64,000 bases of DNA from Schmidtea nova (Eukaryota), in NCBI GenBank assembly GCA_044892505.1, contig CM097882.1:153202001-153266000 (forward strand). Reading direction: 5' to 3'. Under the pieces are notes generated by a model. That model worked only from the letters and a program-made list of their open reading frames with translations. It was not told where the DNA came from and did no database searches. Position numbers and translations under genes: made by a program. Shown here in pieces: positions 3,325-57,332 of this stretch. The first letter of the stretch is position 1. Every line of letters begins with the position of its first letter.

Positions 3325-3340
3325 CTTAACAAATTCTTAC

Positions 3341-4660: not shown

Positions 4661-4694
4661 CTTTTTTATAAAAACATTTATTAAACTACATTGT

Positions 4695-5078
4695 TTATAC
4701 TTTGAACATAGAATTAAGCCATGCAAGGCAATGTTGACCACAAGTAATTGTTAATGGATGTTGATACCGAATTCGATTATATACAATAGGTTTACCTAAA
4801 GTTTGAAGTTTACTAACTAATAAACTTGGATAGTAACATCCGAATGGATCAAATGCATATACTTTGATTGGTTTCACATATACAGCAATCCAATGTTCAC
4901 CACCTAAAGTAGATGATTGAGTATTGACGACCATGGCTTGATTTATATCTAAATAAGGGATTTTATCTAGTGGATAGACGCCAATAAATTCATTTCCCAA
5001 TAATTGTTTTCCAATTCGATTAACCTGAATAGAACTAGATAAATAGATTTATTTGATAAATAATAAAACTTACTCCAT
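4695..5078 (-). CDS. Adenain-like cysteine protease (virion maturation protease) with a 39-nt intron at 5035-5073
   Basis: Catalytic motifs GEHWIA, FDPFG and YQ...TCGQHC. ATG-GA|GTAAGT...CTAG|T-TCT splices to MDSIQVNRIGKQLLGNEFIGVYPLD; unspliced, the frame stops immediately (ATG GAG TAA). Confidence 0.92.
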
Positions 5079-5119
5079 AACAAATTGTTAACTTAAACTT
5101 ATACATTTATAATGGTAGT

Positions 5120-6341
5120 TTAAACCAAAACTGTTCGATTGGCAGTAATTTGGATTTCATTTTCAAATACTCCATATATTATTACATGTACTGGTTCTTC
5201 ATTAGCTTTAGAAAACTTTATATCCAATCTCAAATTTCCATTTTGAGGTAATTGACTTTGATTTAAATCGAAATCCGGAGCCAAAACAAATGTAAAGAAA
5301 GGGTATTTGTTTTTTAAAATCGGCTAGTGTTATAACACAATTCAAATTCTTATCTAAATATCCCATATTTCTGACCATCGACTGCATATATGTAGTACAA
5401 TAATTATCATTTTCGAAATCTTGAGTATATGTTTCTCGATAATCAGTGTTTTTCGATAGAGATAGAGAAGTTACATTGAAATGTTTAAATTTCGAACTTG
5501 ATGCAGTATATGATCCATTGTATTGAGTTTCACTTTGAAATGCGACCAAAATAAAATTAGGCATTCTTCGATCGCCGAATATTTGTTCTTTGTAGAAAGA
5601 TGATGCACCTTTACCAATAGCGAATTGCACTATTTCTTTGGTTTTCATTGGATAAATTGCATGTTTTGAATTAAGTCCAACTTGATGTCCAGCTAATACA
5701 GATTGTTCAACACGAACACGACGAATCATTAATTTTGCATCAACTAATTGACATTTTGGTGCTCCACTTTTAGAATATAGTGATAATGCAGAATCTGATC
5801 GCTTCAGTCTGATGTGAACATTGACACCAGGAAGTAAATATTTCGGCTGATCCATGAAATCCAGTTGTAGGGAAGAACACATTGTGAATAGCTTTGAGCC
5901 TTTGATCCACGCTTTTCTCTCGTCAGAATCTCCATATCCCATTGGAGTAAGACAAGTTTCTTTGGTATCACCATTATAATTTAAAATAGTTTCGATTATT
6001 GCCTTGTGTGCATAAGTATTGTTTCCACCTTCAATCTTAATATTATTAAAACCAAGAATTGCGTCCTTGAAAAGAGTATGAAACATGAAATTGTTTGGTA
6101 TAACATCATCAGTTGCAGACAAATCTTTTTTATCGGCATTTACTACTTTTACTTGAACAGTTAGTAAAGTATCATTCAAATCCAAATATTCAGATTGAGA
6201 TCCGTTAATATAAAATTCAACATCATTTCTACCGTCTGTAATAGAATTCATGGGAAATACTTCTTCAAATGCTCCATATTCAATAACTGCTTGAGGTGAT
6301 GGTCGGTCAAAAAGACATAATTCAGATTTACCACAAATCAT
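5120..6341 (-). CDS. Double jelly-roll major capsid protein (hexon-like), with one frameshift at ~5310-5315
   Basis: Maverick MCP motifs: ELCLF, VEFYI...YLDLNDTLL, FLDFMDQPKYLLPGVNVHIRLKR, LMIRRVRV, MPNFILVAF. Removing one A from the A6 run restores the C-terminus KNKYPFFTFVLAPDFD...GNLRLDIKF...HVIIYGVFENEIQITANRTVLV* ending at 5120. Confidence 0.92.
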
Positions 6342-6724
6342 TTTGCAAATATAGTTCCATGTCCTTTCATTCGATTGTTTATATACCTTCGATGCTTTTT
6401 ACGTCTAGGCCCCACTTGTTCAGGTTCAGGTTCATCTTTATTAAACATACTTGCAACATTATGAATCATACTAGTCACAGTAGGCAAGACTTTACCAATG
6501 GCAGACAAAGCATTTGTTTTCAATGATGGTAATATTTTCTGATCATTCATGATGACATCTTTGGCAGTTTTTAAACCAAAACTACCGATTCTCTTAAGAA
6601 TTGGGAGTGCAAATCGCCCTATAGTTTTTAACCAACCTGATCCATACTGTTTACCAGCAAAATAAGGTAATTCACCACCAGTTTGGCTATTACTATACAA
6701 TGAAATTATATCTGGATTAATCAT
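6338..6724 (-). CDS. Small virion protein with adenain-type cleavage sites and an amphipathic helix (pVI/core-like)
   Basis: QTGG-ELPYFAG-KQYGSG-WLKTIGRFALPILKRIG; basic C-terminus RRKKHRR and MKGH|G. It lies directly upstream of, and overlaps, the MCP start. Confidence 0.75.
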   Translation of the reverse strand: MINPDIISLYSNSQTGGELPYFAGKQYGSGWLKTIGRFALPILKRIGSFGLKTAKDVIMNDQKILPSLKTNALSAIGKVLPTVTSMIHNVASMFNKDEPEPEQVGPRRKKHRRYINNRMKGHGTIFAK

Positions 6725-7764
6725 TTAATTTACGAAAATGTAATGTCAAATGTGTTTTTGAATCTTTTGGAAAATTTATTAATTTACCACTATCGTCACG
6801 GATATTTATTTCTATATTGTTTATACATGAAGTAGAAATAGGTAAATACATTGGATTATCCATTACTATTTGTACAACTTCATCCTGTTCATATTTGTCG
6901 ATCCATACAGATTTCAGTAGAGGAACCAGAGAATCACCGACAATTATTGGTTCAATAATGTTACTGTAAATGAACATTTGTTAATGATGAACAAGTATTT
7001 TTGGTTTCACAGTCCCATCAATAAGGTTTCGATCTCTATAAGTTTGTTTATTTAATCCTAAAGTATTGACCAAGTTTTTATCGAATGTAACTTCGCTAAT
7101 ATTATCGTTGAGACTGAATTGAAACCATTTGTTAATCTCTAGAGTTTTAAAGATATGGGAGCAGTTGAATGATAAATATTTAGATAAATCTTCCAATTGC
7201 ACTATATACAAATCATTTGCAAATGTAAATGTTTCTTCAATTTCTGCATCATAAGATATTGTTATCTTAATATCTTCTTTCAAATAACTATTCGGTTCAA
7301 ATAACACGAACTTTAATTGATATTCTTTCAGTTTACTTACAATTTTGAGTTGATTACTTCCCATTCGTTTTGCTTCTTCAATATTTTCAAATGTAATTGT
7401 ATATGGAGTAAAGTCGCAATTAATATTTAAACATCCATTATTGTAAAACATACTACAATGAGCAGCCAGATTCTGATTAGGAATTTTATAGAATCTATCA
7501 AAGTTGTTGATAATGAAAAGACCACTACATGTTATAGTTTCAATTCTCTTGTAATCAATCTTACATTGACTATAAAAATGGAAATGTATTGTACACAAAC
7601 GTGAAATCTTGCAATGCAACTTCCCAATTACCATCTAAATAAATCGGATTTTGAAGATTGACCATGAATTTACTGGCTTCATTATCTGGATGTATTAATG
7701 GACAGCTATTACTCGGTAATATAGTATAAAAATTCACTTTACTAGGTCTTTTGATGATATCCAT
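6717..7764 (-). pseudogene. Minor capsid protein (penton, single jelly-roll), split into three ORFs by a frameshift (~7573-7577) and an in-frame stop (6981-6983)
   Basis: N-terminus FYTILPSNS...PDNEASKFMVNLQNPIYLDGNWEVALQD and C-terminus MFIYSNIIEPIIVGDSLVPLLK...YLPI...INNIEINIRDDSG...HLTLHFRK are Maverick penton motifs. TAA-CAA-ATG joins ORFs 6981-7634 and 6717-6977 in the same frame. Confidence 0.85.
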
Positions 7765-8788
7765 GAAGGGTTTTGATATCCATGCCACGTTACGTAGTAT
7801 TGTTTATCCTTACCCACCATTTTAGTTTTTAATATTTTTTGAATTCTAAATACAGTACGCGGAGGAATAACTTGTAATTCTTGCTCGTAAAATTTCCCCC
7901 TAACTACATTATTGTCAGAGTCAGAAATAACATACATGACACGGTCTTGGCTAGTATTAATTTTTGAGATCTGAAATACCTCATCACTCCAATTACTATC
8001 AAAATTTTTGATGAATGGCGAAGCGCTAATCTTGCTAATTCGAACATGATCACCAATTTTATATTTCGGTTTATTTATACTAGTTGTTAATTTGTGAGAT
8101 CCAGTATTTTTCGTTGAAACATCAACAGGTCTCAATCCATTTATACCTTTATGTGACGAATGATTATAACTATGTATTATTTTTGGCAATACATTAATCC
8201 ATGTTTTATTACCTTGATGTACAAAATACTTTTTCAAACGATCTCTTAATGTACGATAAAATCGTTCAACATGGGCTGCTTTGAATTGAGAAAACACAGA
8301 GTAATGATTAATCCCGGCCAAAACTTCTTTAACTTTACTATTGTAAAATTCTTTACCTAAATTATAATTAAAAATGTATAGAATAAGTATATATTCTTAC
8401 CCAAATCAGTTTGTAAGTTTTTTGGACGACCGGATTTAAACATAGTTTTCATTGCAATAGCCATTTCATTTGCTGATTTAGTTTTGGTAGGAATAGCACG
8501 GGCAAATCTATTGAAGACATCGATACATGTTAAAATATATTTATATCCCTTGTTAATATTTGAATAGGGAATCATTTCCATCAAATCCATTTGCCACAAG
8601 TCGTTAATACCATATGTTTTATATGTTCTTGTTGGAAATCTTTTCAATGCTGGTTTGTTTAGACTGTATGCCAGTTGACCCGATAACCATTTTTGAGTCT
8701 CTTTTGTCGAGTTTGGGACTTTTTTCTTTAGCTTTTCGACTCCACCGAAACCGGCGGGATCTTTTGGGTTTGTCCATATCTTCTCCAT
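7734..8788 (-). CDS. Retroviral-like (c-int) integrase with C-terminal chromodomain and a 44-nt intron at 8357-8400
   Basis: WQMDLMEM, TCIDVFNRFA, LQTD..., VERFYRTLR (DDE core) and FRIQKIL...YYVTWHGY...SWI (chromodomain). Splicing TTGG|GTAAGA...TTTAG|GTAAAGAA gives LQTDLGKEFYNSKVKEVLAGINHY, joining the two track ORFs. Confidence 0.95.
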
Positions 8789-8852
8789 TGCAACAAGAAG
8801 AATTAAAATTTAATTTAAGATTAGGTAAATGACCAATCGGTAATTGACCCAT
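8619..8852 (-). CDS. Small basic ORF (77 aa, MG start, SCC) overlapping the integrase 5' end in another frame
   Basis: ATG in ACAATGG context, 3 nt after the stop of the upstream gene: MGQLPIGHLP...SSCCNG...KPKRSRRFRWSRKAK. No homology recognised. Confidence 0.35.
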   Translation of the reverse strand: MGQLPIGHLPNLKLNFNSSCCNGEDMDKPKRSRRFRWSRKAKEKSPKLDKRDSKMVIGSTGIQSKQTSIEKISNKNI

Positions 8853-8855
8853 TGT

Positions 8856-9401
8856 TTATGATGTTGAGGGTTTTCCTAGTAATCCTACACCACCTAATAA
8901 AGATAGTGCTAATGGTAACAATGTCGCAATAAAACCTCCATGTTGTTTATATATTATTTTTCGCATTTGTTTTTTATTTTTAGTATTTACGAGCGATAAT
9001 AATGGTTTCTTATGTTTGTTCAAAACAGTTTTATTTGATTTACTAATATTGATTTTACCTTTTACCACTTTAACTATAACATCAAGTAAATCATCAATTA
9101 CGTAATTGGGAAATGATTGTAAAATACTCATTCTTCTAATGCTTGGAGCCTTGAGTAATGCATTAAAAAACGGAAAACTGCGATGATTTTTAGATTTTTT
9201 ATTTATAGATTCCTTTGGAGCCTTTGACGTTTTTGGTTTTGAATTATGTGAAATAAGATTCATTCTTGGAAAATTTTCGGTGATTAATGTTTTAGGGGGT
9301 GTGAAACTAGTTTTAGACGGAATTATTGTTTCACGATTCTTTTTAATAACTTTTCTAAGTTTAGATAACTTTGGTTGTTTGGTACGTGCTTTAAGTATCA
9401 T
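8856..9401 (-). CDS. Lys-rich virion core-like protein with C-terminal cleavage motif and hydrophobic helix (ATG 9401)
   Basis: Highly basic. IDDLLDVIVKVVKGKI...HKKPLLSL...KQHGG|FIATLLPLALSLLGG matches the conserved Maverick protein normally found between ATPase and integrase. Confidence 0.75.
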   Translation of the reverse strand: MILKARTKQPKLSKLRKVIKKNRETIIPSKTSFTPPKTLITENFPRMNLISHNSKPKTSKAPKESINKKSKNHRSFPFFNALLKAPSIRRMSILQSFPNYVIDDLLDVIVKVVKGKINISKSNKTVLNKHKKPLLSLVNTKNKKQMRKIIYKQHGGFIATLLPLALSLLGGVGLLGKPSTS

Positions 9402-9422
9402 GATTAATTTCAAACATGATTT

Positions 9423-10046
9423 TTAACTTTGTTTATAAACCATGGCTCCTTCTTTGTTAAAAATATCGGTTCTAACACGTAATTCATCACTACATTGTTG
9501 AGTATAGTCAAGAAAAATATAACCATGTGGGACTTTAGTTGCATCTTGAAATGCATTGATCAAAAAATTTCGATTATTAGGGTAAGCCTGTCTTGCAAGA
9601 AAATCAATAACTGTGGCATCTCTAGGATTTTTAAAAATAACTAGATATTGAACATTTAAATTTCGAGTCCGATGACTGCCACCCTGATGAAATAAATTTT
9701 GAGTAATAAAAATAATTGTAACACCCTTGTGTCTTGCGATTTTTGTAAATAAATTATTAAAATCCTTTTCTTTATTTGCTTCTTGATACAAATCATCGAT
9801 AATAATCACATCACCACTTCGTAATCTAGACGACCAGTTTTTTTCAAATCCCTTTATTATTGTCATTTTAATCTTGCAGAATTGATCTTGAGTCATTCCA
9901 TGTTCATCATCAGCTCCCCTATGCCAATAAATTTTGTTAAACTTTGATTTGAATAATTTTGATTGTAATAATTTACAAACAAATAATGTTTTTCCACTTC
10001 CACTTGGACCTACAATTTGATAAACTGCATCATTTCTTAATTCCAT
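9423..10046 (-). CDS. A32/FtsK-like genome-packaging ATPase
   Basis: Walker A GPSGSGKT, Walker B IIIDD, ARHKG..IIFITQNLF and YLVIFKNPRD. First ATG is at 10046. Confidence 0.95.
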   Translation of the reverse strand: MELRNDAVYQIVGPSGSGKTLFVCKLLQSKLFKSKFNKIYWHRGADDEHGMTQDQFCKIKMTIIKGFEKNWSSRLRSGDVIIIDDLYQEANKEKDFNNLFTKIARHKGVTIIFITQNLFHQGGSHRTRNLNVQYLVIFKNPRDATVIDFLARQAYPNNRNFLINAFQDATKVPHGYIFLDYTQQCSDELRVRTDIFNKEGAMVYKQS

Positions 10047-10141
10047 TTTCAAATATTAATTGTTTATTGTTATTGTTTATATTTGTTTAAATTCATTATT
10101 TTACTTTTATCAAAATTATTTGAAAAATACTCAGTTAAATA

Positions 10142-12329: not shown

Positions 12330-12965
12330 GTATCTAGATAATAATGTAATAGAAAAAATTCGCTAAATATTTTGGTTTTTTAACACCACTTTGACATTGA
12401 AAATATTTTGATTTTTAACACCACTTGAAAACAAAATGGCCGACTCAAAATGGCCGATTCAAAATGGCCGACAATATTTTGATTTTTAACACCACTTGAA
12501 AACAAAATGGCCGATTCAAAATGGCCGACAATATTTTGATTTTTAACACCACTTGAAAAACAAAATGGCCGGTTCAAAATGGCCGACAATATTTTGATTT
12601 TTAACACCACTTTGACCTTGAAATTCAAAATGGCGTAGAAAATTAACGTTAAAATTCAAAATGGCGTAGAAAATTAACTTTAAAATTCAAAATGGCGTAG
12701 TAAATTAACCTTAAAATTCAAAATGGCGTAGAAAATTAACTTTAAAATTCAAAATGGCGTAGAAAATTAACCTTAAAATTCAAAATGACGTACAAAATTA
12801 ACTTTAAAATTCAAAATGGCGTAAAACTTTGACCTTAAAATTCAAAATGGCGTAAAAATGTGACCTTAAAATTCAAAAATTTTAAAAAAAAAATTTAAAA
12901 AAATTCGGGGGGGGGGGTAGGGGGAGGGGGGCACTGGTGGTGTAGATAGCCCATATGGTACTTCT
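12330..12965 (-). repeat. Right terminal inverted repeat of the Maverick
   Basis: Reverse complement of the left TIR, with fewer repeat units. It has a G-tract at 12907-12931, and the terminus reads AGAAGT instead of AGTAGT. Confidence 0.95.
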
Positions 12966-23560: not shown

Positions 23561-26500
23561 CAAACTTTAGATAACAAATATTCACTAACAAACTTTAAAT
23601 AACTATATATAATAATTAAGAAAACAACGTAAAACCCACCATGTATGTATATTGCAAAATTAGTCGGGTTTCATATAGTATGCATGACTACATAACCATT
23701 GTACAATGCTCAGGTTTTACATATCACGCATAACTATTTGACTATTACGTAACACGTATGGGCTTTTCCCGTTGCACACAAGTTATGACAGCATATTTAC
23801 AAAATTGAGGTCAACGGACAAGGTCATTTTGGAGTAAAGGTCATTTTCTAGGTCATTTTTCTAGGCGCAATTTTTGAATTTTTCTTTAAATGAAATACAT
23901 ATATAAATTTTTGGCACAATTTTACCGCCGTTTTGAATTTTTTTTAAATAAAGTAAATATTTAAAATTTTGGCGCATTTTAAAAAAGTTTTAAAATTTTT
24001 ATTAATATTTTTTACTACTATTTTCCAAAGTATTATTATTATTTTTTTTATTAATAATCTATGTCACTAAAAGAAGAGACAATATAAATAACATGTGCTT
24101 TAATATTTGTCAGTCTTAAATAGTGGTAATTAAAAGCATGTGCCTAAAAGACACACTGGGCAAGTGATCGCGCCCATAAGGGTAGTCAGTGGCACTTCCA
24201 AAGTTCTGGCTAATAAGACCTGGACATCAATAGTTCTCTATCTATAGCGATAATGTCTCGGATAATCAAGAGTAGTCAGCTACCAAGACATCATCCACAA
24301 CGTAGTGATTCATACGCCATGAATGTACAGGAAAGACATCTTTATAAATATTATGACTAAATTTAATTTATCTTCAGTCAAGAAATTATACAAACATAGC
24401 AGCGGCCTCCCATTAGGTTGGATTACGGCTGTCCACCATAGCGACTGGCATGCTTCAATAAATTAAGGGTATAAACGAAACCCATCCACCCTAATATATT
24501 TTAAAATAAACAACAAATAAAATTTTATCTTTTATTTCGTCATCTGTCATAGAACCGCTTGTTTTATCTAAAATTATTAAATAAGTTATATTAGAAATAA
24601 ATTGATTTACGATTCCAGAAAAGATTCTCCCGAAGTGTTGAAATAATTTGTTATCTTAAATAAAAGTTTAAATTATTAATAAATATTACTAATTAAATTT
24701 TTTTAAATTAATTTTTTGCATCAAAATGCGTTTATTTAAAAATAATAACTTTTAATAAAATAAAACTTTATACAAAAATAATAATTCAATTTTTCTTAAA
24801 AATTATTAAAATTAATTTTGAAAAAGTCGAAAATTCCTTCTAGATCAAGTTTTTTAATGCATCAACGAAAACAACACACAAATCCTCATATATATACCTT
24901 TATCAAAATCGTAATCGTTAGAATTTCGTACAACCAACTGGCAAAAATTCCATTTCAGCATAACTCTGCCAAAATATCTTGTTAATAAGAAGAATTTGCT
25001 TATGGTCAAGCTTCACGTAGTGAACCTCTCACGAAACGTCTTTCCATCGATACTGAGAAAGATCTTCAGCTGTTACTCGTTAGAAGAGTCTACAGATCCA
25101 AAATCAACCAACCATTCCGTTTGATACCATCAGGTGGATCTCAGTACTAAACCTCTCTCTATTCTAAGAAAACTGTTGATAGAATGGATTCAGAAGGAAG
25201 CCAACCAAATATTAGAAATGTAAGGTTGAACCTAGTTTTCATGCATGAAGCCAAGTATTTTATTATGGTTTGATTTATATGTGTATAATTTGTACGATAT
25301 TTTTAAATTCTATATACATTTATCTCATATTTAAAATGAATAATATAATTGAATCGATTATCGCTCATATTATGTTATATTTGTTATCATTATAGGATAT
25401 TTTCCGATTAAAACTCTGTAAAAATTACCGATCTAGCGACCATATGATTATTATATCTAAATAATTTCTTTTGATCTCCATACTATTTGAAGTCAGTCCT
25501 GCCCGTTAGCTATACTGACGGAAGTAGCATAGGTGGATCACTGTTTAGTTGAGGCACATCAATGACCATGCCCATATTTCTTTCTAAGATGAGACTCACA
25601 CATCCATGATCACTTCATCCCATACTTTGATGTTGGGGAACAGTGGCTTGGCCTAGGGTAAGGTTATTATAGTAATGCTAGTTGAATTGTTGATAGTTGT
25701 TATATTGATAGTAGTTGATATGATAGTAATGCATTTTATCTGTATTAAATCACATATTACAAATTTTACAATCAATGAAATTACAGAAATTATGTGTTGA
25801 AATTTGAAATCAATTTCAATAGAAGAAGTGAATATTTGCAAGCAATTCCCCACTGAGATGTTGTTCTTCTGTTTGTAAGGACGATCCTTTTAATTTAAAA
25901 GAAAACATTAAAAGCTATGATAAAACGACTTACTAATATCCCTACTAGTCAAAATAAATTTACGAATTTTAGGATTTTCCATCTGTAAATAAATGTCAAA
26001 ATTAATAACATTATATTAGAAAAAAGAATATTAGAATTGTTGCAGACGGATTCCAGAAATCTTGATTTCCACCTAAAAATGATTATATAGATTTATAATA
26101 ATTGAGCATTATTTTATTTCAGCAGACGAAAGGGGATGTAATATAATTTAAGTTGTTTAATACATTTCACAAGCTTAAATAAGAATCAAAGGGAAACCAA
26201 GAATCCAAAATTAACAAGTCGCATAATTTCTAAATCGTAAAAAAAATTTGTTTGTATAAAAAAACCGCATAATTTTAAAACTGCATAAAATAAAATCGCA
26301 TAAATACAGAATTGAGTATATATATATGACGCCGTTTGTCTATATTCTAATTTCTTATAACTTTTTACTTATAATGGATGTAATGCTGCATACATTGGAG
26401 ATACTGTTCAATAAATCTGTACACGAGATCAGGAGCATGTCAGAAAGTCGAAAAGAGTAATATTATTAATAATTATAATAAGATACGCAAGAATAGCATT

Positions 26501-26872
26501 GATATTTTTCATTTTATTATATTGTCTAGGTGTTTTAAAATGATTATTGGATTATGTACATGTTAATACATAATCACTAATAATTGCGTATGATCAACTT
26601 TTATTTATTTGAATTTGTTTTTTGCCTGAAGATGACATTTGAGCTGTCAAAATATTTTTCAAAAATATATTTTAGAAATTGATGCTTTTTTGTTTTTCGT
26701 TATTATTATTATTATTATTATTATTATCAATAATTCTCATAATGACTATAGATCAAATTTTTTTTTATAAACAATAAAATTAATTATTGTTTATAAAAAA
26801 AAATTTGATCTATAGCCATTATGAGAATTATTGATAATAATAATAAAAAAAGATCAAAGGTGAAAAAAGATA

Positions 26873-26908
<36 letters not shown>

Positions 26909-27234
26909 ATAATTATTATTATTATTATTATTATTATTAATAATAATATTAATATTTAGTTTTATTTTGTGTTAGGTTTTCGGAGCAAATATTCAAAAAA
27001 GCATTTGATTTTAGTGAAAATCATTACCAGATATTTTTATATAAAATTGAGACATTTTCTAATGTCAAATTAATATCTTTAATATTTTTATTATTAGTAA
27101 TATTCAATATATTCCTTGGTAACAATTCAATTTTTTTAAAATGACTATATTATTAATTAATTTATTAATATATGAAGCAAAGAAGACTGATTCTTACTAA
27201 TTTACCCTGTTTGACAATGACGTTCAAATGGTAG

Positions 27235-28228
27235 TTATTATAGTCTATGCGCGGTTGCAATTTGTGTTTTTAATTTGTTCTATGCGTGAATGTAGAGAAG
27301 AGTTGTAGATCCCGAGAGAGTCCGACGTTATTAATGTGCCGACACTCGGGGTGTGTGCTGTGTCGTGCGATTACAGTGATAATAATACAACAATTAAATC
27401 TAAAAAGGTGTATATGCTATTATAAAATAAACTGAACTAATATTAATTTACTAAAATTTATTATGAACAGGACAATAAAAAAACCACGAAAAAGTTACTT
27501 TTGGGTGTGTTAACACGGGGAAATATATCTACTGGAACAAAATCTTTTGATAATTTATCCTGGAAATCTTTTTATAGTTTCTTTTAATAAAATTTTATTT
27601 TGGCTCGGATTATAGCGATAAGCTCGGAAATTAATTCTGGAAGAGATCGTCTTTTAATAAAAATTTATTTTAACTCGGATTATAACAATAAGTTCGGAAA
27701 TTAGTTCTGGAAGGGATCTTCTTTTTATAAAAATTTATTTTAGTTCGGTTTATAACAATAAGTTCGGAAATTAATTCTGGAAGGGATCTTCTTTTTATAA
27801 AAATTTATTTTAGTTCGGATTATAGCGATAAGCTCGGAGATTAATTCTGGAAGAGATCTTCTTTTAATAAAATTTATTTTAATTCGGATTATAGCAATCT
27901 GTTCGGAAATTGATACTGAAAGGGATCTTCTGTTGTAATTTTCTTTTACAATTTATTGCAAACAATATTTAATTTTTCTTCCCCAAAAAAAATCGATTTA
28001 ATTAATTTGTGATTTGGCTTACTATAGCAAATTGCTATAGTAAGCCAAATTCAAATTTTAAATAAAAATAATTATAATAATTACAATAATAAAAATAAAT
28101 ATTAACAAGCATAATAAAATATGGGGGGGCCCAGGTGACCGCAAAGGCACCGTCCATAACAATGACGGCGCTTATAACCTCACCAGCAAATAAACATCTA
28201 AAACTGACAATAAAATGTGACATTCACA
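27235..28228 (-). repeat. 3' LTR (TGTGAATG...ATAATAA) with ~63-bp internal tandem repeats and a 37-nt palindrome
   Basis: Starts after the PPT AAAGGGGGAAGT plus TA. About five copies of AAAATTTATTTTAGTTCGGATTATAACAATAAGTTCGGAAATTAATTCTGGAAGGGATCTTCTTTTTAT lie at ~27590-27920. Confidence 0.92.
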
Positions 28229-28474
28229 TAACTTCCCCCTTTAAAACCGGAGGTTAACAAGAGAATAAAAATTAACAGATTAACCATGTTGACAACTTGT
28301 TTTTGTTGTTTTGTTTTATTTTGTTTTGTTTTTGTATTTGTTTTGTTGTTTTTATAACGTCTTAACCATAACATTTACATATTTACACGAAAATAAAACT
28401 GTACATTTCACTGTGTTGTGCTTGTGTTTATTTGTGTTTTATTTAAAGCATTATCTGTATTGTTTTTTTTTGGG

Positions 28475-31400
28475 CTAGGCTGTGTGAGGCGTTGAGTGTA
28501 AATTTTGATTGTTGTAATGGTAGGGTTTTAGTCTGCGGATGTTGACTCTAACTTTTCGGTTGTTTATCACTAATGTCCCCACGTTTTTGTCTAATTCGAG
28601 AAGTTTGTAAGGGCCTTCATATTTCGATTCGAAACCACTGGTAAAAGGTTTTTTTATTAAAACCATATCGACCCTTAAATTTGTTTTGGTTTGTTTGTTG
28701 TCATTGTCCATTAAGACTCCTTTTGGTTCATTCTGGGATGTAAGTGTTCTGTTTTTGTAAGTTTTATCGGGGTTTTTGTAGTTATCTATTAAATTTGGGA
28801 GGTTTGTTGAATGCCCGAAAGTTAATTGGCTTGGGCTTTTGTTCGTTAAGGAGGATGGGTTATTTCGTAAACCAATTAGGATTTCTGGGAGTTTTTCTAA
28901 CCAGTTTCTGTCATCGGCTTTAGTCCGGATCGCTTGTTTTAAGGATCTGTGCAATCTTTCCACTTTGCCGTTTGACTGTGGGTTATAGGCTGTTGTTCGG
29001 ACTTTTTTTATTTTATATTTTGAGCACAATCCTTTGAATAAGTCTGACTCGAATTGTCTGCCTTGATCACTGATAATTGTTTTTGGACATCCGTATCTCG
29101 CAAACCAGTTTATTTCCAGTTTTCTGCAAATTGTTGCTGCTGAGATCTCTTTGATTGGGATTGCCTCAAACCAGTTGGTGTATCGGTCTATTATTGTCAA
29201 TAGGTATTTTTGTTTGTTGTTAGGTGGTAATGGGCCCACTATGTCTATATGTATTGTTTGGAAAGGTTCTGTTTTTGGGAATTCAATTTTTGTTGTTTTG
29301 AATTTTGTTGTTATTTTGTTTTTCTGGCAGTTTATACATGAGCTTACGTATTCTTTGATGTCCTTCCTCATGTTCGGCCATACTACTTTTGTATGCATGA
29401 GTTCGTATGTAGCTTTCGTTCCTGGGTGGTATATGTTGTGAAATTGTTTTATTAGTTCAGTTCTGTGTTCCTCAGGTACTATTAGTCTTATGTTGTGTTC
29501 GTTAGAGACGTCGTACCAAATTCCATCAATCTCTTTTAGTATTAATGAGTTGAGTTTTGGGAAGTTATTTATTGTTCTTTCTTGTTTGTTTCTCATTGTT
29601 TCTTGATTCACTGTTGGAATCATGCTGATGGCGTTTGTTTCTGTTTCGATTCGCGAGAGGGTATCTGCGCATATGTTTGCGGCTCCTGCTATATATTTTA
29701 TTTCGCAATTGAATTGTGAAATGTAATTTAACTGTCTTATTTGCCTTGGTGATGGTAATTTCATGTTCATTGCGTTTACTAGGGGTTTGTGGTCTGTATA
29801 CACTTCAAATTCTTTCCCTTCTAAGAGGTATTGAAAGTGTTTTATTGTATCATGTACCGCCAGCAGCTCCCTGTCAAAAGTGGAATATCGCATTTGGTGG
29901 GTTTTGAGTTTTTTTGAGTAAAATGCGATGGGTTTTTTTTCGTTATGTTTTTCTTGGTATATTGTACCTCCCATTGCTGTTCCAGAGCAATCAGTGTTGA
30001 GGATGTATGTTAAGTTTGGGTCAGGGTAGTTTAATAGACTTGTGTTGGATAGGTTTGTTTTTGCCTTTTCGAAAACCCTTTCTAGTTGTTTGTTCCAGTT
30101 GATTTTAATGTTTCTTTTGTTGGTGTTTAAGTCGTTTAGTGGTGCGAGTATCTCGGTGCACTTTGGGATGTGTTTGTGGTAAAAGTTTATCATTCCCATA
30201 AAACGTCTTAATTCTCTTGTTGTTTTGGGGAGTGGAAATTCTTTGATGGCCTTTATTTTGTCGTCTAGAGGTCTTGTTCCATTTCCGTTAAGGATATGTC
30301 CCAAAAACCTGACTTCCTGTTTTAAGAATTCGCACTTCTTTATATTAATTTTGAGATCGTGGTTGTTGAGGGTGTTTAGAACTTCCGTGATGTCCTGCAT
30401 GTGTTCGGTTTTGTTTGTTGATGCGATTAGGATGTCGTCTAAATACGCTACCGTATTCCTGTGGTTTCTCAGGATTTGGTCCATGAACCTTTGGAAAGTT
30501 GCGGCTGCGTTTTTTAAACCGAATGGCATTCGGTTGTATTCATATAACCCGATCGGTGTTATTATTGCAGTTTTTTTTACGTCTTCTTCACGCACCGGAA
30601 TTTGGTGATACGCCTTTTGCAGGTCGATTTTACTGAAATATTTTGGATTATGTATCCTGTTTATGATGTCGTTGATTATTGGTATAGGGTATTTGTCAGG
30701 TATTGTAATATTGTTCAAAGCTCTGTAATCTCCGCATGCTCTCCATTCGCCATTTGCTTTTTCTTTTAGCATCAGTGCGGATGACCAGTTGGAATCTGAA
30801 TGTTGAATGATTCTGTTTTCCAATAGATCGTCGAAGATTTCTTTGGTTATTGTGAGTTTTTTGTTGTCCAGTTGTCTTACTTTGGCGTGGACAGGGTTAC
30901 CATTTGTTATGATGGCGTGTTTTGTGATGCATTTATTTGTGGTTTCTATTGATAGTTTATCAGTGATTGTAGGGTAGTTTTTGAGTAATTCTTTGATTTC
31001 TTTTGGGATGGAATTGTCTGCGTTTGTTTTTTCGCATTTTGTTATATTTTTAGTTTGTAATCCTTCAGTTTGTATTTTTTTTGTGTTTGCGGTTATTACC
31101 CCGATGTCACAATTTGTTAAGGTTTTTAGGTTTTCTTGGTTAGGTTTGTTGTTTGGGTATTTTTCTGTTTCGGAAGTATTTTGTATTATTTTTTTATTTC
31201 GGCAGTCTACTAACAAGTTATATTTCGCTAGGAAATCGGCTCCTACAATGGCCTGTTTCACGTCGGCGATGATGAATTCCCAATTGTAGTTTGTCTTGTT
31301 TATATTAATGGTTAGTTGCTGTTTGCCGTAGGTTTTGATGTTGCTGCCATTTGCTGCGCACAGGTTGTAGTTTCCTTCTTTTAAGGATTGGTATAAATAA

Positions 31401-31558
31401 CTTGGTAACAAACTAACTATTGAACCGGAATCAACGAGAAAATTTATATTGTTGCTTTGCACCGTGAATGTTTCGTAGTCGCCGAATGTCGGTGCTGTCA
31501 TTGGCGACTTTAATTGTGTTCCGGCTTTTTGTTGTGGAAAGCACAAGGTGCGTTGCAC
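28475..31558 (-). CDS. pol: Pol polyprotein (PR-RT-RNaseH-IN), intact
   Basis: PR LVDSGS; RT CGDYRALN, KIDLQKAYHQI, YLDD; RNase H TDCSG, ELLAV, TDHKPL; IN H-H-C-C, HIDIVGP, SDQGRQFES, GKVERLH. It overlaps the gag end in the -1 frame. Confidence 0.97.
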   Translation of the reverse strand: MQRTLCFPQQKAGTQLKSPMTAPTFGDYETFTVQSNNINFLVDSGSIVSLLPSYLYQSLKEGNYNLCAANGSNIKTYGKQQLTININKTNYNWEFIIADVKQAIVGADFLAKYNLLVDCRNKKIIQNTSETEKYPNNKPNQENLKTLTNCDIGVITANTKKIQTEGLQTKNITKCEKTNADNSIPKEIKELLKNYPTITDKLSIETTNKCITKHAIITNGNPVHAKVRQLDNKKLTITKEIFDDLLENRIIQHSDSNWSSALMLKEKANGEWRACGDYRALNNITIPDKYPIPIINDIINRIHNPKYFSKIDLQKAYHQIPVREEDVKKTAIITPIGLYEYNRMPFGLKNAAATFQRFMDQILRNHRNTVAYLDDILIASTNKTEHMQDITEVLNTLNNHDLKINIKKCEFLKQEVRFLGHILNGNGTRPLDDKIKAIKEFPLPKTTRELRRFMGMINFYHKHIPKCTEILAPLNDLNTNKRNIKINWNKQLERVFEKAKTNLSNTSLLNYPDPNLTYILNTDCSGTAMGGTIYQEKHNEKKPIAFYSKKLKTHQMRYSTFDRELLAVHDTIKHFQYLLEGKEFEVYTDHKPLVNAMNMKLPSPRQIRQLNYISQFNCEIKYIAGAANICADTLSRIETETNAISMIPTVNQETMRNKQERTINNFPKLNSLILKEIDGIWYDVSNEHNIRLIVPEEHRTELIKQFHNIYHPGTKATYELMHTKVVWPNMRKDIKEYVSSCINCQKNKITTKFKTTKIEFPKTEPFQTIHIDIVGPLPPNNKQKYLLTIIDRYTNWFEAIPIKEISAATICRKLEINWFARYGCPKTIISDQGRQFESDLFKGLCSKYKIKKVRTTAYNPQSNGKVERLHRSLKQAIRTKADDRNWLEKLPEILIGLRNNPSSLTNKSPSQLTFGHSTNLPNLIDNYKNPDKTYKNRTLTSQNEPKGVLMDNDNKQTKTNLRVDMVLIKKPFTSGFESKYEGPYKLLELDKNVGTLVINNRKVRVNIRRLKPYHYNNQNLHSTPHTA

Positions 31559-32511
31559 TTGAAAGCCTTGTCCCCAAATCTATTGTGAAAATAACACCAA
31601 TTTTCATTTGTTATGTAGTTGTTGTTCGTGTTAATGTATCGGTTCAAATTTGGTTTTTGCTCTGTGGGGTTGTTGTAGTTATTTTGGTAACGGTTAAAGT
31701 ATGGGTTTTGTTCTGTACGGTTGTTTTGATTGAGCTGGTTCCTTTTTGTTTCTCTTGTTTGTGCCTCTTGTAAATCGTTTCGGAGGTTCTTGTTTTCTAT
31801 TAAGACCTCGTCGACTTTCTTTATTAACGAGTTAAGTAGAAGGTTGGTATCGTTGTTAGGGTTATCTCGTTTTTGGCAGTCTTCTTGCTTATTTTCCCAT
31901 GGGTGCTGTTTTCGGTATGTTTTACAAACCGCTGGGAATAATTCATCATTTATTTTGTCCGCGATATCGGCTATTTTGTCAAGGTCGGTGGTGTCATTTG
32001 CGGCTAAAATGCGTCTTATTTCTTGTGGCATAGCCCTCATGAATAAGTCCTTTACGAATTCGCTCGATCCCGAGCTTGTTATTTTAGGTTGTAGGAATTC
32101 CAGTTTTGTTTTAAGGTGCCTTAAAAATTCGCTAGGTTTGTCGCTTCCTAGCTGAATGTCTTTTAGGCAAGATTCTAGTATTTCCCTCCTGTTTATCTTA
32201 TTTCTGTTCAATAAGGTCGAGTATAATGTTTCGAATGGGTCATTATTTTTTTCTATTTCTTTTATCCTGTCGCCGATTTCATTTAGTATGTTGCTTGGCA
32301 ATGCGGCGATTATGTGGGCGCATAGTGTTTTTGATGACTTGATTCCCGATAGAGTCAGTGTTAGTTTGGCAAACTCTAACCATTTTTGCAGGGTTCCGTT
32401 TTCATCGGTAAGAAAATTGGGGATGTTTGCTTTAGGGTTGATGATTGAGTTTATGGTGCTATGGTCGAGTGGTGTTTGTGAATTGTTTGAGTTTGTTTGG
32501 TTTGATGCCAT
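31510..32511 (-). CDS. gag: Gag with CHCC zinc knuckle
   Basis: Capsid-like core (QLGSDKPSEFLRHL, FMRAMPQEIRRILA, IADIADKI) and C-terminal CYFHNRFGDKAFKCNAPC, the CHCC motif of CsRn1-clade gypsies. Confidence 0.93.
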   Translation of the reverse strand: MASNQTNSNNSQTPLDHSTINSIINPKANIPNFLTDENGTLQKWLEFAKLTLTLSGIKSSKTLCAHIIAALPSNILNEIGDRIKEIEKNNDPFETLYSTLLNRNKINRREILESCLKDIQLGSDKPSEFLRHLKTKLEFLQPKITSSGSSEFVKDLFMRAMPQEIRRILAANDTTDLDKIADIADKINDELFPAVCKTYRKQHPWENKQEDCQKRDNPNNDTNLLLNSLIKKVDEVLIENKNLRNDLQEAQTRETKRNQLNQNNRTEQNPYFNRYQNNYNNPTEQKPNLNRYINTNNNYITNENWCYFHNRFGDKAFKCNAPCAFHNKKPEHN

Positions 32512-32685
32512 TTCTATATTCTTGCTGTTTGTTTATGTGAAAAAAAATGAGATTGGTTGAAGGATATAGCCTACTGTGTTCGGCTAACAGAGTCAACTAT
32601 CCTTTATAGCTCTATCTAATAGCTATTCTAAAAGGCGTAGTGATTGAAATAACAATATTCGGCGATTGTGTGTTATATTTTTTTG

Positions 32686-32697
32686 CTTCTGACACCA
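32686..32697 (-). promoter_or_regulatory. Primer binding site complementary to the tRNA-Leu 3' end
   Basis: The minus strand reads TGGTGTCAGAAG one base after the LTR end. It is complementary to ...CTTCTGACACCA, the 3' end of eukaryotic tRNA-Leu(CAA). Confidence 0.9.
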
Positions 32698-33311
32698 GTT
32701 ATTATAGTCTATGCGCGGTTGCAATTTGTGTTTTTAATTTGTTGTATGCGTGAATGTAGAGAAGAGTTGTAGATCCCGAGAGAGTCCGACGTTATTAATG
32801 TGCCGACACTCGGGGTGTGTGCTGTGTCGTGCGATTACAGTGATAATAATACAACAATTAAATCTAAAAAGGTGTATATGCTATTATAAAATAAACTGAA
32901 CTAATATTAATTTACTAAAATTTATTATGAACAGGACAATAAAAAAACCACGAAAAAGTTACTTTTGGGTGTGTTAACACGGGGAAATATATCTACTGGA
33001 ACAAAATCTTTTGATAATTTATCCTGGAAATCTTTTTATAGTTTCTTTTAATAAAATTTTATTTTGGCTCGGATTATAGCGATTAATTAATATTAATTAA
33101 TATTAGTAAATTAATATTAGTTCAGTTTATTTTATAATAGCATATACACCTTTTTAGATTTAATTGTTGTATTATTAACACTGTAACCGCACGACACAGC
33201 ACACACCCCGAGTGTCGGCACATTAATAACGTCGGACTCTCTCGGGATCTACAACTCTTCTCTACATTCACGCATACAACAAATTAAAAACACAAATTGT
33301 AACAGCACATA

Positions 33312-33344
33312 GAGGCGTGGGTTCAAATCCCACTTCTGACACCA
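33312..33344 (+). other. Reverse-transcribed 3' fragment of mature tRNA-Leu (T-arm, acceptor strand, CCA); not a tRNA gene
   Basis: GAGGCGTGGG-TTCAAAT-CCCAC-TTCTGACA-CCA has a perfect T-stem and T-loop and ends in CCA; it is embedded between inverted LTR fragments. Confidence 0.9.
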
Positions 33345-34075
33345 CCTTCCAGAATTAATTTCCAAACTTATTGTTATAATCCGAACTAAAATAAATTTTT
33401 ATAAAAAGAAGATCCCTTCCAGAACTAATTTCCGAACTTATTGTTATAATCCGAGTTAAAATAAATTTTTATTAAAAGACGATCTCTTCCAGAATTAATT
33501 TCCGAGCTTATTGCTATAATCCGAGCCAAAATAAAATTATATTAAAAGAAACTATAAAAAGATTTCCAGGATAAATTATCAAAAGATTTTGTTCCAGTAG
33601 ATATATTTCCCCGTGTTAACACACCCAAAAGTAACTTTTTCGTGGTTTTTTATTGTCCTGTTCATAATAAATTTTAGTAAATTAATATTAGTTCAGTTTA
33701 TTTTATAATAGCATATACACCTTTTTAGATTTAATTGTTGTATTATTATCACTGTAATCGCACGACACAGCACACACCCGAGTGTCGGCACATTAATAAC
33801 GTCGGACTCTCTCGGGATCTACAACTCTTCTCTACATTATTATTATGAAATTACATGAAATTACCATCACCAAGGCAAATAAGACAGTTAAATTACATTT
33901 CACAATTCAAAATAATAAAAATAAATATTAACAAGCACAATAAAATATGGGGGGGCCCAGGTGACCGCAAAGGCACCGTCCATAACAATGACGGCGCTTA
34001 TAACCTCACCAGCAAATAAACATCTAAAAATGACAATAAAATGTGACATTCACATAATCTCACTTCTGACACCAG

Positions 34076-35068
34076 TTATTATAATCTATGCGCGGTTGCA
34101 ATTTGTGTTTTTAATTTGTTCTATGCGTGAATGTAGAGAAGAGTTGTAGATCCCGAGAGAGTCCGACGTTATTAATGTGCCGACACTCGGGGTGTGTGCT
34201 GTGTCGTGCGATTACAGTGATAATAATACAACAATTAAATCTAAAAAGGTGTATATGCTATTATAAAATAAACTGAACTAATATTAATTTACTAAAATTT
34301 ATTATGAACAGGACAATAAAAAAACCACGAAAAAGTTACTTTTGGGTGTGTTAACACGGGGAAATATATCTACTGGAACAAAATCTTTTGATAATTTATC
34401 CTGGAAATCTTTTGATAGTTTCTTTTAATAAAATTTTATTTTGGCTCGGATTATAGCGATAAGCTCGGAAATTAATTCTGGAAGAGATCGTCTTTTAATA
34501 AAAATTTATTTTAACTCGGATTATAACAATAAGTTCGGAAATTAGTTCTGGAAGGGATCTTCTTTTTATAAAAATTTATTTTAGTTCGGATTATAACAAT
34601 AAGTTCGGAAATTAATTCTGGAAGGGATCTTCTTTTTATAAAAATTTATTTTAGTTCGGATTATAGCGATAAGCTCGGAGATTAATTCTGGAAGAGATCT
34701 TCTTTTAATAAAATTTATTTTAATTCGGATTATAGCAATCTGTTCGGAAATTGATACTGAAAGGGATCTTCTGTTGTAATTTTCTTTTACAATTTATTGC
34801 AAACAATATTTAATTTTTCTTCCCCAAAAAAAATCGATTTAATTAATTTGTGATTTGGCTTACTATAGCAAATTGCTATAGTAAGCCAAATTCAAATTTT
34901 AAATAAAAATAATTATAATAATTACAATAATAAAAATAAATATTAACAAGCATAATAAAATATGGGGGGCCCAGGTGACCGCAAAGGCACCGTCCATAAC
35001 AATGACGGCGCTTATAACCTCACCAGCAAATAAACATCTAAAACTGACAATAAAATGTGACATTCACA
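34076..35068 (-). repeat. Outermost 5' LTR
   Basis: Near-identical to 27235-28228 (only a few substitutions and indels by eye); followed by TSD GTAG. Confidence 0.92.
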
Positions 35069-35689
35069 GTAGTCAACAGAATTTATTAGTCCGTCATTGG
35101 AAAGAATTGAAGGTGACTATAATTACTTTTGATAATAAATAAAATATATTTAAAAAAAATCATTTTTTAATTGTCAAAGTCCAAAATATTTTTTTGTTAG
35201 TGCAAACATGGTTTACCCCTATAGACTTATTACTTTTAATTATTTACTTGTTAGTGTTAACTTAAAAATTATTACTACTTAATATAATTTAATAATTTCA
35301 TATGAAGATCTCTGATTAGCTTTTGTTTAAATAAATGGTTTTGCTTAAATAAATATTTTGTTTAAATAAATGGTTTTAGTAATATATTTATATTAATTTA
35401 GAAAAAATAAGAATAAATATAGAAAAGGTTTTTTGCACTAATTTACAAGAATTATTTTGTAGCATTTCTTGTATAATATTTACTATTTTGAATTATAAAT
35501 GGATAAGATTACTGTTTTTTTGAATAACAATTAGAACAAATTATTTTACAAATGCAGTAAGAATATAAAAATAAAATTTAAAGTGGTGACTCTTGATAAA
35601 TTTTTTTTAATATTCGATAAATTAGATAATCAAAATACTGTATGAAAAATGTTAACAATTTTAACCAAATATTATACTATCGTATATTT

Positions 35690-54169: not shown

Positions 54170-57100
54170 TATGAGATTGTAAGCGCCGTCATTGTTATAG
54201 ACGGTGCCCTTGCGGTCACCGGGGACCCCCCCTTTCATCGGTGAATGCTAATATGTATTTTTATTATTATTATTATTAATATTATTATTATTTAAATTCA
54301 AATTCAAATTTGGCTTGCTATAGCAAAAGCTATAGTAAGCCAAATTGAAAAAAATTTTAAAAAAATCAATCAACAAATACATTAAAAAAAGCCTATTTTG
54401 AAATTCTCAATAATTCTCACAATAATTCCACAATAATTTCACAAATTCTCAATATTCCAAGAGCATTTTAAATTAGAAATTAGTTCTCGAATCTTTGGAA
54501 CATATCTACGACTGTTACCCAGATTTTAGAAACTTAAAATTGAAAAACCTAAAAAAATAAAGAATCCCCAAACTCTATTTTCCAACTCTATTCCTCAAAT
54601 CAAAAAATAATTTAGTTGAACTATCAAGAAAAAATACTCCAAACCTGAAAACGAACAGAAACGTATTCAAATCCACCTGATCCCTCCGAAACTCTATAAT
54701 CCCTCTAAAGTAACTTTAGTAAAATTGCGTATCTGACATTGGTGATAATAGTTGTGTTTAGCGTTAATAATTAATTTATTTCATTATTGGTTATCTTATT
54801 TTATTGCATACACTCTAGCACTACAAAGCATACACCCCGAGTGTCGGTACACTGTTAACGCCAGACTCTCTCGGGCACTTACATTCTTCTAGAGCCACAA
54901 AACAGAATATAACCTTAAACACACATACGTAACATAAATAGGAAAAAGAACGTACATAATAAACTGGTTTCAGAAGTCAACACAACACACACACACTCGC
55001 CGTTTTTTTTCAAGCGTTAACGCCTTCAGCATACCTATTATAGAGGTATAAGGATTAACGTCACTTTTAGCCGAACACAGTAGGCTATATCCTTTAGTCA
55101 AGCTCATTTTTTTTCACATAAAAAACAACATAACAAACAACAACAATAAAACTAAATGGCATCGAACCAAGCTAACCCAAAAATTTCACAAACACCGACT
55201 GATAACGAAAACACACAATCCAACACCAAAACAACAACTACTATTACAACCCCGAAAACCATAAATTTAGTAATTAACCCAAAACCCAACTTACCAAACT
55301 ACTTCACAGATGAAAATGGCACCCCACAAAAATGGCTAGAATTTGCCAAATTAACATTAACCCTTTCAGGCATAAAATCCACAAAAACCCTATGCTCCAA
55401 TATTATAGCCGCACTCCCCAGTAACAAACTAAATGAAATAGCGGATCAGATCGAAGAAATTTCTAAGGATGATGACCCCTTTAACAAACTGTGTAACATC
55501 CTTACGAACAAAAATAAAATAAACAGGAGACAAATGCTAGAGTCATGTCTCAATAACACGCAACTAGGCGACAACAAACCAACAGATTTTCTCCGACAAC
55601 TTAAGCAAAAATTAGAATACCTCCAACCCAACATCACAAATTCAGGCTCCAACGAATTGGTGAAAGAATTCTTCATGCGAGCAATGCCACCAGAAATCAG
55701 GAGGATTTTGGCAGCCAGCAACAACGCTGATGTGGAAACGCTTGCCGACATAGCGGATAAAATCAACGAGGAAATTTATCCGACTATATGCTGCACCCAA
55801 AATCACAACAAAAACAAACCGCATTACAATAATCCCGCATACAAAAAAAACAACGAAACAAACGACAACATGAACAAACTATTAAACACCCTAATCGGCA
55901 AATTCGACGAAATCATAGTCGAAAACAGACAAATTAAAACAGAACTAGCCGAAATAAAAGAACGTTGTAATAAACAGACCTTCAACTCAACACAATCATA
56001 CGACAATTACAACAGATATAACTACAACAGAGACCTACCATCAGACGGTCAAAACAGACAATGCTACAATAAACCTCCAGAATACAACAGACAAAACTAC
56101 AGCCGCAGTCAATCACCTAACAACAACTACAGAAACCGGTCAAACTCCCCAAATCGAGACAACAACTACCGAAACAGAAGTCCAGAAAGAGACCCAAGAA
56201 ACAATTACCTAAACAAAAACCTTTGCTATTTCCACAACAAATTTGGTGAAAAAGCATTTAAATGCACACAACCCTGCGAATTCAATAAAACAGAGCAGGG
56301 AAACCAATAAGGTCACCAATGATAGCACCCACATCAGGTGACAAAAATAACACATTTTGGGTGCACAGCAACAACATAGATTTTTTAATAGACACTTGCT
56401 TGGTGATCTCACTACTGCCCCATTCTATGTACAAAAGTGCCAACAAAACAGAAAAACCATTAACAGCAGCTAACGGCACAAACATCAAAACCTTCGGGCA
56501 ACAAAAAATAAATTTAAACATTAACAAAAAGAACTACAACTGGACATTCACAATAGCTGAGGTCCAACAAGCGATAATAGGAGCAGACTTCCTAACAAAT
56601 TACAACCTCTTAGTTGATTGTAAAAACAAACAAATATTAGAAAATAATACTAATACTACAGCACCACAGCACAACACGAACAATGGAGGAAAACCGAAAA
56701 TAGACATTGGTGTTATCCAAATGGATTCAATGAACTACAAATCAGAAATAAATACAGAAATAAATACATTACTGGGAAAAGCCGACAAACTTATCGCACC
56801 AGTAACTTTCGACAAGAAAACAAACGAAATAAATAACGAAGAAACAAATAAACAAATAACACCCAAAAACAGTGAGAACATCGAAAACAAATTAAAAGGA
56901 ATACTGAAAAAGAGACCAAACTCAGAGAATGATGGCACGACCGTACTAACAACCGATTACCTACTAATAAAGAAGCCATACTCAAAAGATCCCGAAGACG
57001 AATACGAATACGAAGGCCCATTCAAAATACTCGAAATCAACAAAAACGTGGCCACAATAATAAAAAACAACAATACAACAAGAATAAATTTACGTAAAAC

Positions 57101-57224
57101 AAAACCGTACCACAACAAGCAAAACATCTCAAACAACCCCACAAAACAAAAAGCCCCGACACAAACAAAAACTCAAACAAAACACAAACACATCACATTC
57201 AACTACAAAAACTCAATAAAACTG

Positions 57225-57230
<6 letters not shown>
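54170..57230 (+). mobile_element. Second CsRn1-like gypsy element: partial 5' LTR, PBS, gag, internally deleted pol, no 3' LTR
   Basis: The LTR is homologous to element 1 (TGAGATTGTAAGCGCCGTCATTGTTATAGACGGTGCC, hairpin, CACCCCGAGTGTCGG). PBS TGGTTTCAGAAGT is at 54965-54977. Both ends abut TA runs. Confidence 0.88.
55156..56310 (+). CDS. gag: Gag with CHCC knuckle and RS/N-rich linker; GGGAAAC slippery site before the stop
   Basis: Clearly homologous to gag at 31510-32511; CYFHNKFGEKAFKCTQPC. CAG GGA AAC CAA TAA is followed by pol in the -1 frame. Confidence 0.92.
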   Translation: MASNQANPKISQTPTDNENTQSNTKTTTTITTPKTINLVINPKPNLPNYFTDENGTPQKWLEFAKLTLTLSGIKSTKTLCSNIIAALPSNKLNEIADQIEEISKDDDPFNKLCNILTNKNKINRRQMLESCLNNTQLGDNKPTDFLRQLKQKLEYLQPNITNSGSNELVKEFFMRAMPPEIRRILAASNNADVETLADIADKINEEIYPTICCTQNHNKNKPHYNNPAYKKNNETNDNMNKLLNTLIGKFDEIIVENRQIKTELAEIKERCNKQTFNSTQSYDNYNRYNYNRDLPSDGQNRQCYNKPPEYNRQNYSRSQSPNNNYRNRSNSPNRDNNYRNRSPERDPRNNYLNKNLCYFHNKFGEKAFKCTQPCEFNKTEQGNQ

Positions 57231-57306
<76 letters not shown>

Positions 57307-57332
57307 GTCTGAAGAGCTCTGAAGAGGGCTAA
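56319..57332 (+). pseudogene. pol: Truncated pol: protease fused in frame to the integrase C-terminal tail; RT, RNase H and IN core absent
   Basis: FLIDTC (DSG motif altered)...IIGADFLTNYNLLVDCKNK, then YLLIKKPY...YEGPFKILE...RINLRKTKPYH. The track ORF is extended by read-through into (TA)n. Confidence 0.85.

Follow-up and report, generated by a model that had tools for sequence, protein, structure and literature searches.

The window, a stretch of 64,000 nucleotides of contig CM097882.1 of Schmidtea nova, contains a Ty3/gypsy retrotransposon on its minus strand (27236-35068), both ends of which are normal and bordered by a perfect 5-bp target-site duplication (Table 1). All features of such an element are present: two long terminal repeats (LTRs), a primer-binding site (PBS), a polypurine tract, and the target-site duplication. 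The pol domain order RT, RNase H, integrase (Pfam) is that of Ty3/gypsy, and the best PDB match is Ty3 Gag-Pol (E 6e-106). In the approximately 250 nt from pol to the 3' LTR, no minus-strand frame of at least 120 amino acids was detected that might encode the env of an Errantivirus. The two LTRs differ at only 4 positions in about 993 nt. In seven sister pairs, the LTR begins with TG and stops 2 nt before the PBS, and all seven have 5-bp duplications. The PBS of the element's family covered 12-14 nt at 17 of 17 sites, and the 18 nt assumed in an earlier, sequence-only reading do not apply as its length. The window element is a young insertion, and one recent integration brought in the whole scrambled region that lies between the 5' LTR and the PBS. 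Because the element's ends are normal and the 5-bp target duplication is intact, the scramble is likely to predate integration and to have arisen in the cDNA. A second gypsy-like gag with a partial pol is located at 55156-57332 (+) and is partly 73% similar to the gag of this element.

Table 1. Features of the gypsy element and of its scrambled region (positions in the window)
Feature	Position	Strand	Basis
Target-site duplication, left copy, 5 bp	27231..27235	.	Sequence
Complete 3' LTR	27236..28228	-	LTR comparison
pol open frame	28475..31579	-	RT, RNase H, integrase by Pfam
gag-like open frame	31510..32532	-	DUF7041, E 4e-5, under the curated cut-off
Element's own 12-nt PBS	32686..32697	-	Sequence
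Last 384 nt of LTR, normal orientation, before PBS	32700..33083	-	99.7% to own 3' LTR
AT-rich palindromic filler at inversion point	33084..33102	.	Sequence
Inverted U5-side LTR piece, sister subfamily	33103..33313	+	99.5% to L156/L157 vs 97.1% to own LTRs
tRNA-Leu(CAA) 3' copy, CCA included, 33 nt	33312..33344	+	Match to host genes
Inverted 494-nt LTR piece, blunt at CCA end	33345..33838	+	98.8% to own LTRs
14-nt filler repeating 8 nt of the next piece	33839..33852	.	Sequence
Inverted 58-nt pol fragment, copy of 29709-29766	33853..33910	+	100% identity
Extra U3 start (144 nt) and 3-nt spacer normally after polypurine tract	33911..34057	-	Sequence
Second primer copy, 18 nt (nt 59-76, mismatch at 62)	34057..34074	+	Sequence; exceeds 12-14-nt family PBS
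Complete 5' LTR	34077..35068	-	4 differences from 3' LTR
Target-site duplication, right copy, 5 bp	35069..35073	.	Sequence; junction bridged by one run X4 contig

Read in the direction of the element, the complete LTR is followed by an 18-nt primer copy, a repeat of 144 nt of U3, an inverted 58-nt pol piece, and a filler. Next is an inverted LTR stretch of 494 nt, and after it the 33-nt tRNA copy, a U5-side LTR stretch of about 210 nt that is also inverted, and another filler. The final 384 nt of an LTR, the normal 12-nt PBS, and gag-pol complete the order. The 18-nt copy sits in the order U5-tRNA-U3, which is the geometry of a two-LTR junction. It is likely also tRNA-templated, ending at the textbook stop, because the family PBS is shorter. 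The first base of the 33-mer is exactly tRNA nt 76, and what precedes it is an inverted LTR piece unrelated to it, without U5 end or 2-nt spacer, whereas the U5 end is contiguous with the tRNA copy at 34057-34077 as well as at the loci L033, L034, and others. At the right junction, the tRNA copy ends and the LTR piece begins with zero overlap. At the left junction, two letters are common to LTR and tRNA. The U5-side piece, whose sister-subfamily marker has 34 matches, ends 11 nt short of the PBS. Capture at a short LTR microhomology, AG in CATAG, had been proposed from the sequence; the 2-nt match on the left exists, but the shared letters are GA (33312-33313), the flanking LTR piece is from a sister subfamily, and the right joint is blunt.

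Up to its terminal CCA, the 33-mer is identical to the 3'-terminal 30 nt of the host tRNA-Leu(CAA) genes. It is single in the window, and shuffled controls gave a match in 0 of 100 cases, even at 3 mismatches. Its first 30 nt have 753 matches in the host genome (1.25 Gb, 283 contigs), mostly in a tandem array on contig C2, and the 26 loci read in this array are intron-containing tRNA-Leu(CAA) genes with a T-run at the 3' end and without CCA. A58 was present and CCA absent in all 60 Leu genes sampled (CAA 27/27 and 10/10, CAG 23/23), the CAA genes being a small part of the roughly 750-copy array; six of the seven stretches taken along C2 contained no Leu gene. The intronless Leu(CAG) genes form a second set, the final 28 nt of which are identical to Leu(CAA). 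The 33-mer covers nt 48-76 and four variable-arm bases, and these four are of the CAA, not the CAG type. Base 58 of the window copy is the correct A and thus bears no modification signature. The copy is too short to include the splice junction; the loss of the intron is visible in two further copies, L050 and L084.

Since CCA is missing from all sampled genes and L050 and L084 span the exon junction without the intron, the template was a mature tRNA. Copying from RNA is required, because nothing else supplies both CCA and spliced junctions. The sequence-only reading is supported in this respect: a mature tRNA-Leu with a CCA not encoded by the sampled host genes is embedded in a scrambled LTR, its 3' end is the one matching the element's PBS, copying proceeded about 15 nt past position 58 into the variable arm, and the host isodecoder sought is Leu(CAA). 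Host genes encoding CCA or a variant base 58 were considered as a source, and none occurred among the 60 sampled. A tRNA pseudogene made by a LINE or a tRNA-derived SINE was rejected, as the window copy comprises the 3' part only and lies within an LTR element. ARAGORN detected no tRNA gene with a complete cloverleaf in the window, and an Rfam search of 26000-33300 gave no match.

The host genome was searched with a pattern of nt 51-76 that accepted any base at 58 and one mismatch at another position, and all resulting sites were read. This yielded 44 CCA-tailed copies of at least 26 nt, the window copy included, so the LTR-tRNA chimeras longer than 18 nt for which such a search had been suggested are recurrent rather than unique. 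Exact matches to the last 18 nt numbered 572, of which 27 extend to nt 51; the larger number likely includes many PBSs that were simply inherited, and the ratio is therefore not a rate. Neither a long PBS fixed in a family nor the normal consensus of a repeat family explains the copies, given the family PBS length and the upstream flanks, which differ among copies except in the pairs L042/L055 and L080/L088. Even within a single LTR family, base 58 can be A, G, or T. Among the 33 loci with long flanks, eight are two-LTR elements with the copy directly after the 5' LTR, two are LTR-tRNA-LTR tandems, and three contain an inverted repeat of the LTR end; at 20, no repeat of the adjacent LTR end was found in the available flank, and the LTR origin of these relies on shared flanks only. 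The pol sequence begins less than 100 nt from the copy in 8 of the 44. The inverted joint of U5 and tRNA recurs in three of the 44 (L040, L083, and weakly L081) at 9, 11, and 4 nt from the PBS. L042 and L055 are two copies of one short deleted element consisting of an LTR, a 49-nt tRNA copy, part of the integrase, and an LTR; they are 96.5% alike upstream and have A and T at position 58.

Base 58 was the correct A in 24 of the 44 copies; the other 20 had a wrong base there, T ten times, G eight times, and C twice. In an unbiased one-mismatch search, position 58 took 15 of 27 mismatches over 26 positions (p 7e-15), and positions 57 and 59 took none. With one copy of each shared-flank pair dropped (L055, L080), 58 was wrong in 19 of 42 copies versus 29 of 1375 cells elsewhere (2.1%), a background limited by the search, which allowed one mismatch outside 58 (nt 51-76). 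Wrong bases of this kind are what m1A is expected to leave. The scarcity of C fits as well, because an A follows, and RT misreads of m1A followed by A are described as low in C (PMC4787781). An exact end at nt 38, next to G37, was found in 13 of the 44 copies. When the window copy, L055, and L080 are set aside, 27 copies have a length of 30-49 nt, and 12 of them end there (p 2e-9 against a uniform null, which is crude). An unligated 3' exon is an unlikely cause, as three of the five copies of the intronless Leu(CAG) end at nt 38, too; a 3' half of a nuclease-cut tRNA could produce the same end. For human Leu tRNAs, mutations at m1A58 and m1G37 and stops at m1G37 are reported (PMC5066629).

Four copies pass nt 38. 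The overrun by 1-2 nt in L033 and L083 may be chance, L084 passes the splice junction by 8 nt, and L050 (also recorded as L168; G000:C2:131957873) is a nearly whole copy of spliced tRNA-Leu(CAA) that has an LTR copy on either side and deviates from the tRNA at 58, 37, 32, 29, and 26 and at two D-loop positions. At one variable-arm site, the long CAA copies show C-to-T in 5/21 and C-to-A in 1/21. This was rejected as a modification mark and is likely decay, since 5 of these 6 copies have other mismatches. As judged from these sequence patterns, the 44 long copies are likely overshoots of the reverse transcriptase, in which m1A58 left a misread base and a modified G37 ended the copying. The sequence-only reading had left open a hypomodified primer or read-through. 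The window copy with its correct A58 fits either, but the 19 of 42 copies wrong at 58, about 45% with the mark that a methylated primer should leave, favour the latter, so that modified primers were likely read through.

As a control, the very abundant Gly(GCC) gave 2485 exact matches and no copies with a wrong base 58, and CCA was found at none of the six Gly loci inspected. These non-primer controls are weak, as the matches listed for Gly and Gln are gene arrays from part of the genome. The sole exact Gln(CTG) match on contig C1 (L193/L205, G000:C1:140886282) is CCA-tailed and 52 nt long, runs past nt 38, and ends beside the U pair of the D loop. Neither an LTR pair nor pol was found around this dispersed copy, which indicates that other routes to tailed copies may exist. 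Large tandem tRNA arrays were noted at G000:C2:300.5 Mb, C1:287.6 Mb, C2:66.9 Mb, and C2:408.2 Mb, with units of Gly-Leu-Gln (about 900 nt), Gly (408 nt), Gln-type (213 nt), and Leu-CAG (273 nt).

For the 33-mer in the window, we favour an end jump at somewhat better than even odds (probability about 0.58 for the account as a whole). The element's reverse transcriptase would have switched to a primer tRNA that was paired to a sister RNA and offered its free CCA end, copied the mature tRNA-Leu(CAA) from nt 76 through position 58 and 15 nt beyond, and left it at the 2-base match to U5 of the co-packaged sister-element RNA; the scrambled cDNA would then have been integrated as one integrase event. 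The enzyme's identity, the order of the jumps, and the co-packaging are inferred. Read directly from the sequence were the identity with host genes plus CCA, the blunt beginning at nt 76, a landing only 11 nt away from a PBS on a piece that stems from a sister subfamily, and the normal element ends with their duplication. The end jump is favoured because a single step covers the exact start, the missing U5 end and spacer, the PBS-adjacent landing, and the sister origin. The plus-strand overshoot originally suggested is supported as to the mature primer template and the passage of position 58. However, no U5 end is attached to the copy, and a jump onto the free end fits at least as well.

The principal rival spells out the overshoot of the sequence-only reading: plus-strand strong-stop DNA of the sister element would have run 15 nt beyond m1A58 and then formed a hairpin by folding back on U5. 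At the border of LTR and PBS, this hairpin would have been broken or abandoned, and it would have become joined to other cDNA pieces before integration. Exactly such a fold-back, with both arms kept, is seen in L040 and L083, and overshooting agrees with the two-LTR elements in which the 5' LTR runs straight into the long copy as well as with the copies close to pol. Minor overshoot products, one of them ending at the modified base 37, are also described for HIV-1 (PMC13191261). The joints of L040, L083, and L081 keep U5 beyond the tRNA copy, and the window copy could have lost this first arm. However, the break would have to fall exactly at nt 76. A plain overshoot or an integrase cut would leave the 2-nt spacer next to nt 76, which is missing here; release of the extension by integrase was rejected for this reason. 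We therefore regard the fold-back as a tentative, less probable origin of the window copy than the end jump.

It is improbable that a host repair polymerase, in a Pol theta-type end joining, connected the cDNA fragments and itself copied the tRNA or a 3' fragment of it. Such a process would agree with two of the joints, where the filler is palindromic or repeats nearby sequence, and alternative end-joining factors are described as required for completion of the second strand in Drosophila (10.1101/2022.09.25.509424). But the copied tRNA is the primer species and landed next to a PBS, and the abundant Gly(GCC) left neither wrong-58 copies nor CCA at the inspected loci. Given the fillers, host end joining is possible at the other joints of the scramble. 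Even less probable is a chimera from the assembly or the library. Libraries are known to produce fold-backs artificially, and the inner junctions lack read support among the matches listed in the public runs, which are four contig sets from one study in which repeat depth masks these junctions. Nevertheless, the 5-bp duplication is perfect, the ends are normal, one contig of run X4, possibly the assembled sample, spans the right host junction, and 43 further long tailed copies exist with a position-specific error pattern. Under the favoured end jump, the window copy is likely a dead-end accident without function.

Primer sequence past the PBS was reportedly found earlier in deletions with a tRNA insertion in spleen necrosis virus vectors and at the junctions of two-LTR circles (Pulsinelli and Temin in 1991, Colicelli and Goff in 1986). 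It is said to have been fixed there via faulty plus-strand transfer or incomplete primer removal, in single clones from cultured cells and without a genome-wide count or a modification signature. A literature search with few subscription papers and no supplements revealed no survey of a genome for primer copies that are too long and bear marks of modification. Overshoot of m1A58 itself is already known biochemically for HIV-1. According to two studies, plus-strand copying usually halts at m1A58, smaller amounts of product end at 55, 54, and 37, and unmodified tRNA is copied whole (PMC13191261; PMC11251516). The over-extended strong-stop products (P1, P3-P5) resemble the gypsy copies in that the enzyme passes m1A58 and has a minor stop at the modified base 37. 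In contrast to these reaction or cell intermediates, of which the long ones are termed inactive, the copies described here are integrated, have a wrong base at 58, and stop at G37, not A37 (PMC13191261; PMC11251516).

The low share of C at 58 before A, the stop next to G37, and the mismatches at 26 and 37 in L050 are also known from RT signatures in tRNA sequencing, the latter for Leu tRNAs (PMC4787781; PMC5066629). Those signatures come from reads made with laboratory enzymes, whereas the genomic copies are likely products of copying in vivo. In a similar way, LTR-mediated retroposition (Tan et al., 2016; PMC5131818) captures cellular RNA at microsimilarities, replacing internal sequence, sometimes with filler. 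It concerns mRNAs, and the word tRNA does not occur in the main text; in the window copy, it is the primer that was captured, and its 3' end fixes one of the two junctions. Half-length tRNA copies in animal genomes have been described as tRNA/LINE-1 chimeras and tailless retropseudogenes (10.1101/2025.02.02.635956; PMC5322556). The chimeras mostly comprise nt 1-37, have 9-19-bp duplications, and are ascribed to cleaved halves, unlike the CCA-ended 3' parts beside LTR ends in the gypsy set (10.1101/2025.02.02.635956).

Taken as a set, the copies suggest that LTR-rich genomes probably act as a fossil form of tRNA sequencing, a reading we hold with more confidence than the origin proposed for the window copy. 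Gypsy reverse transcriptases would pass the methylated A58 of their primer frequently enough for dozens of copies to have been integrated. Their misreads and stops would map m1A58 and m1G37 and, in the rare full read-throughs, modified G26 and C32, and two defect routes would be exposed, namely mis-transfer into pol and jumps from the primer to U5 about 10 nt from the PBS. If this is true, the copies are in vivo evidence of a leaky m1A58 stop for gypsy-type enzymes on modified primers, with base 37 as the next hard stop, and an assembly would suffice to identify primer isodecoders and their modifications where a species has no tRNA sequencing. The set contains Leu(CAA) as well as Leu(CAG) primers despite their identical 3' ends. 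The tailed copies also show how elements with internal deletions can arise, and in at least one case such an element was seemingly copied again (L042/L055). The significance lies with the genome-wide set from this one genome and not with the single window copy, a replication accident.

Apart from the gypsy elements, the window contains a row of open frames on the minus strand (4241-10055), one of which has a weak match to an A32-like ATPase. The row is flanked by inverted arrays of a 31-nt repeat (about 2100-3400 and 12500-12900), and the region is possibly a Polinton-like element.
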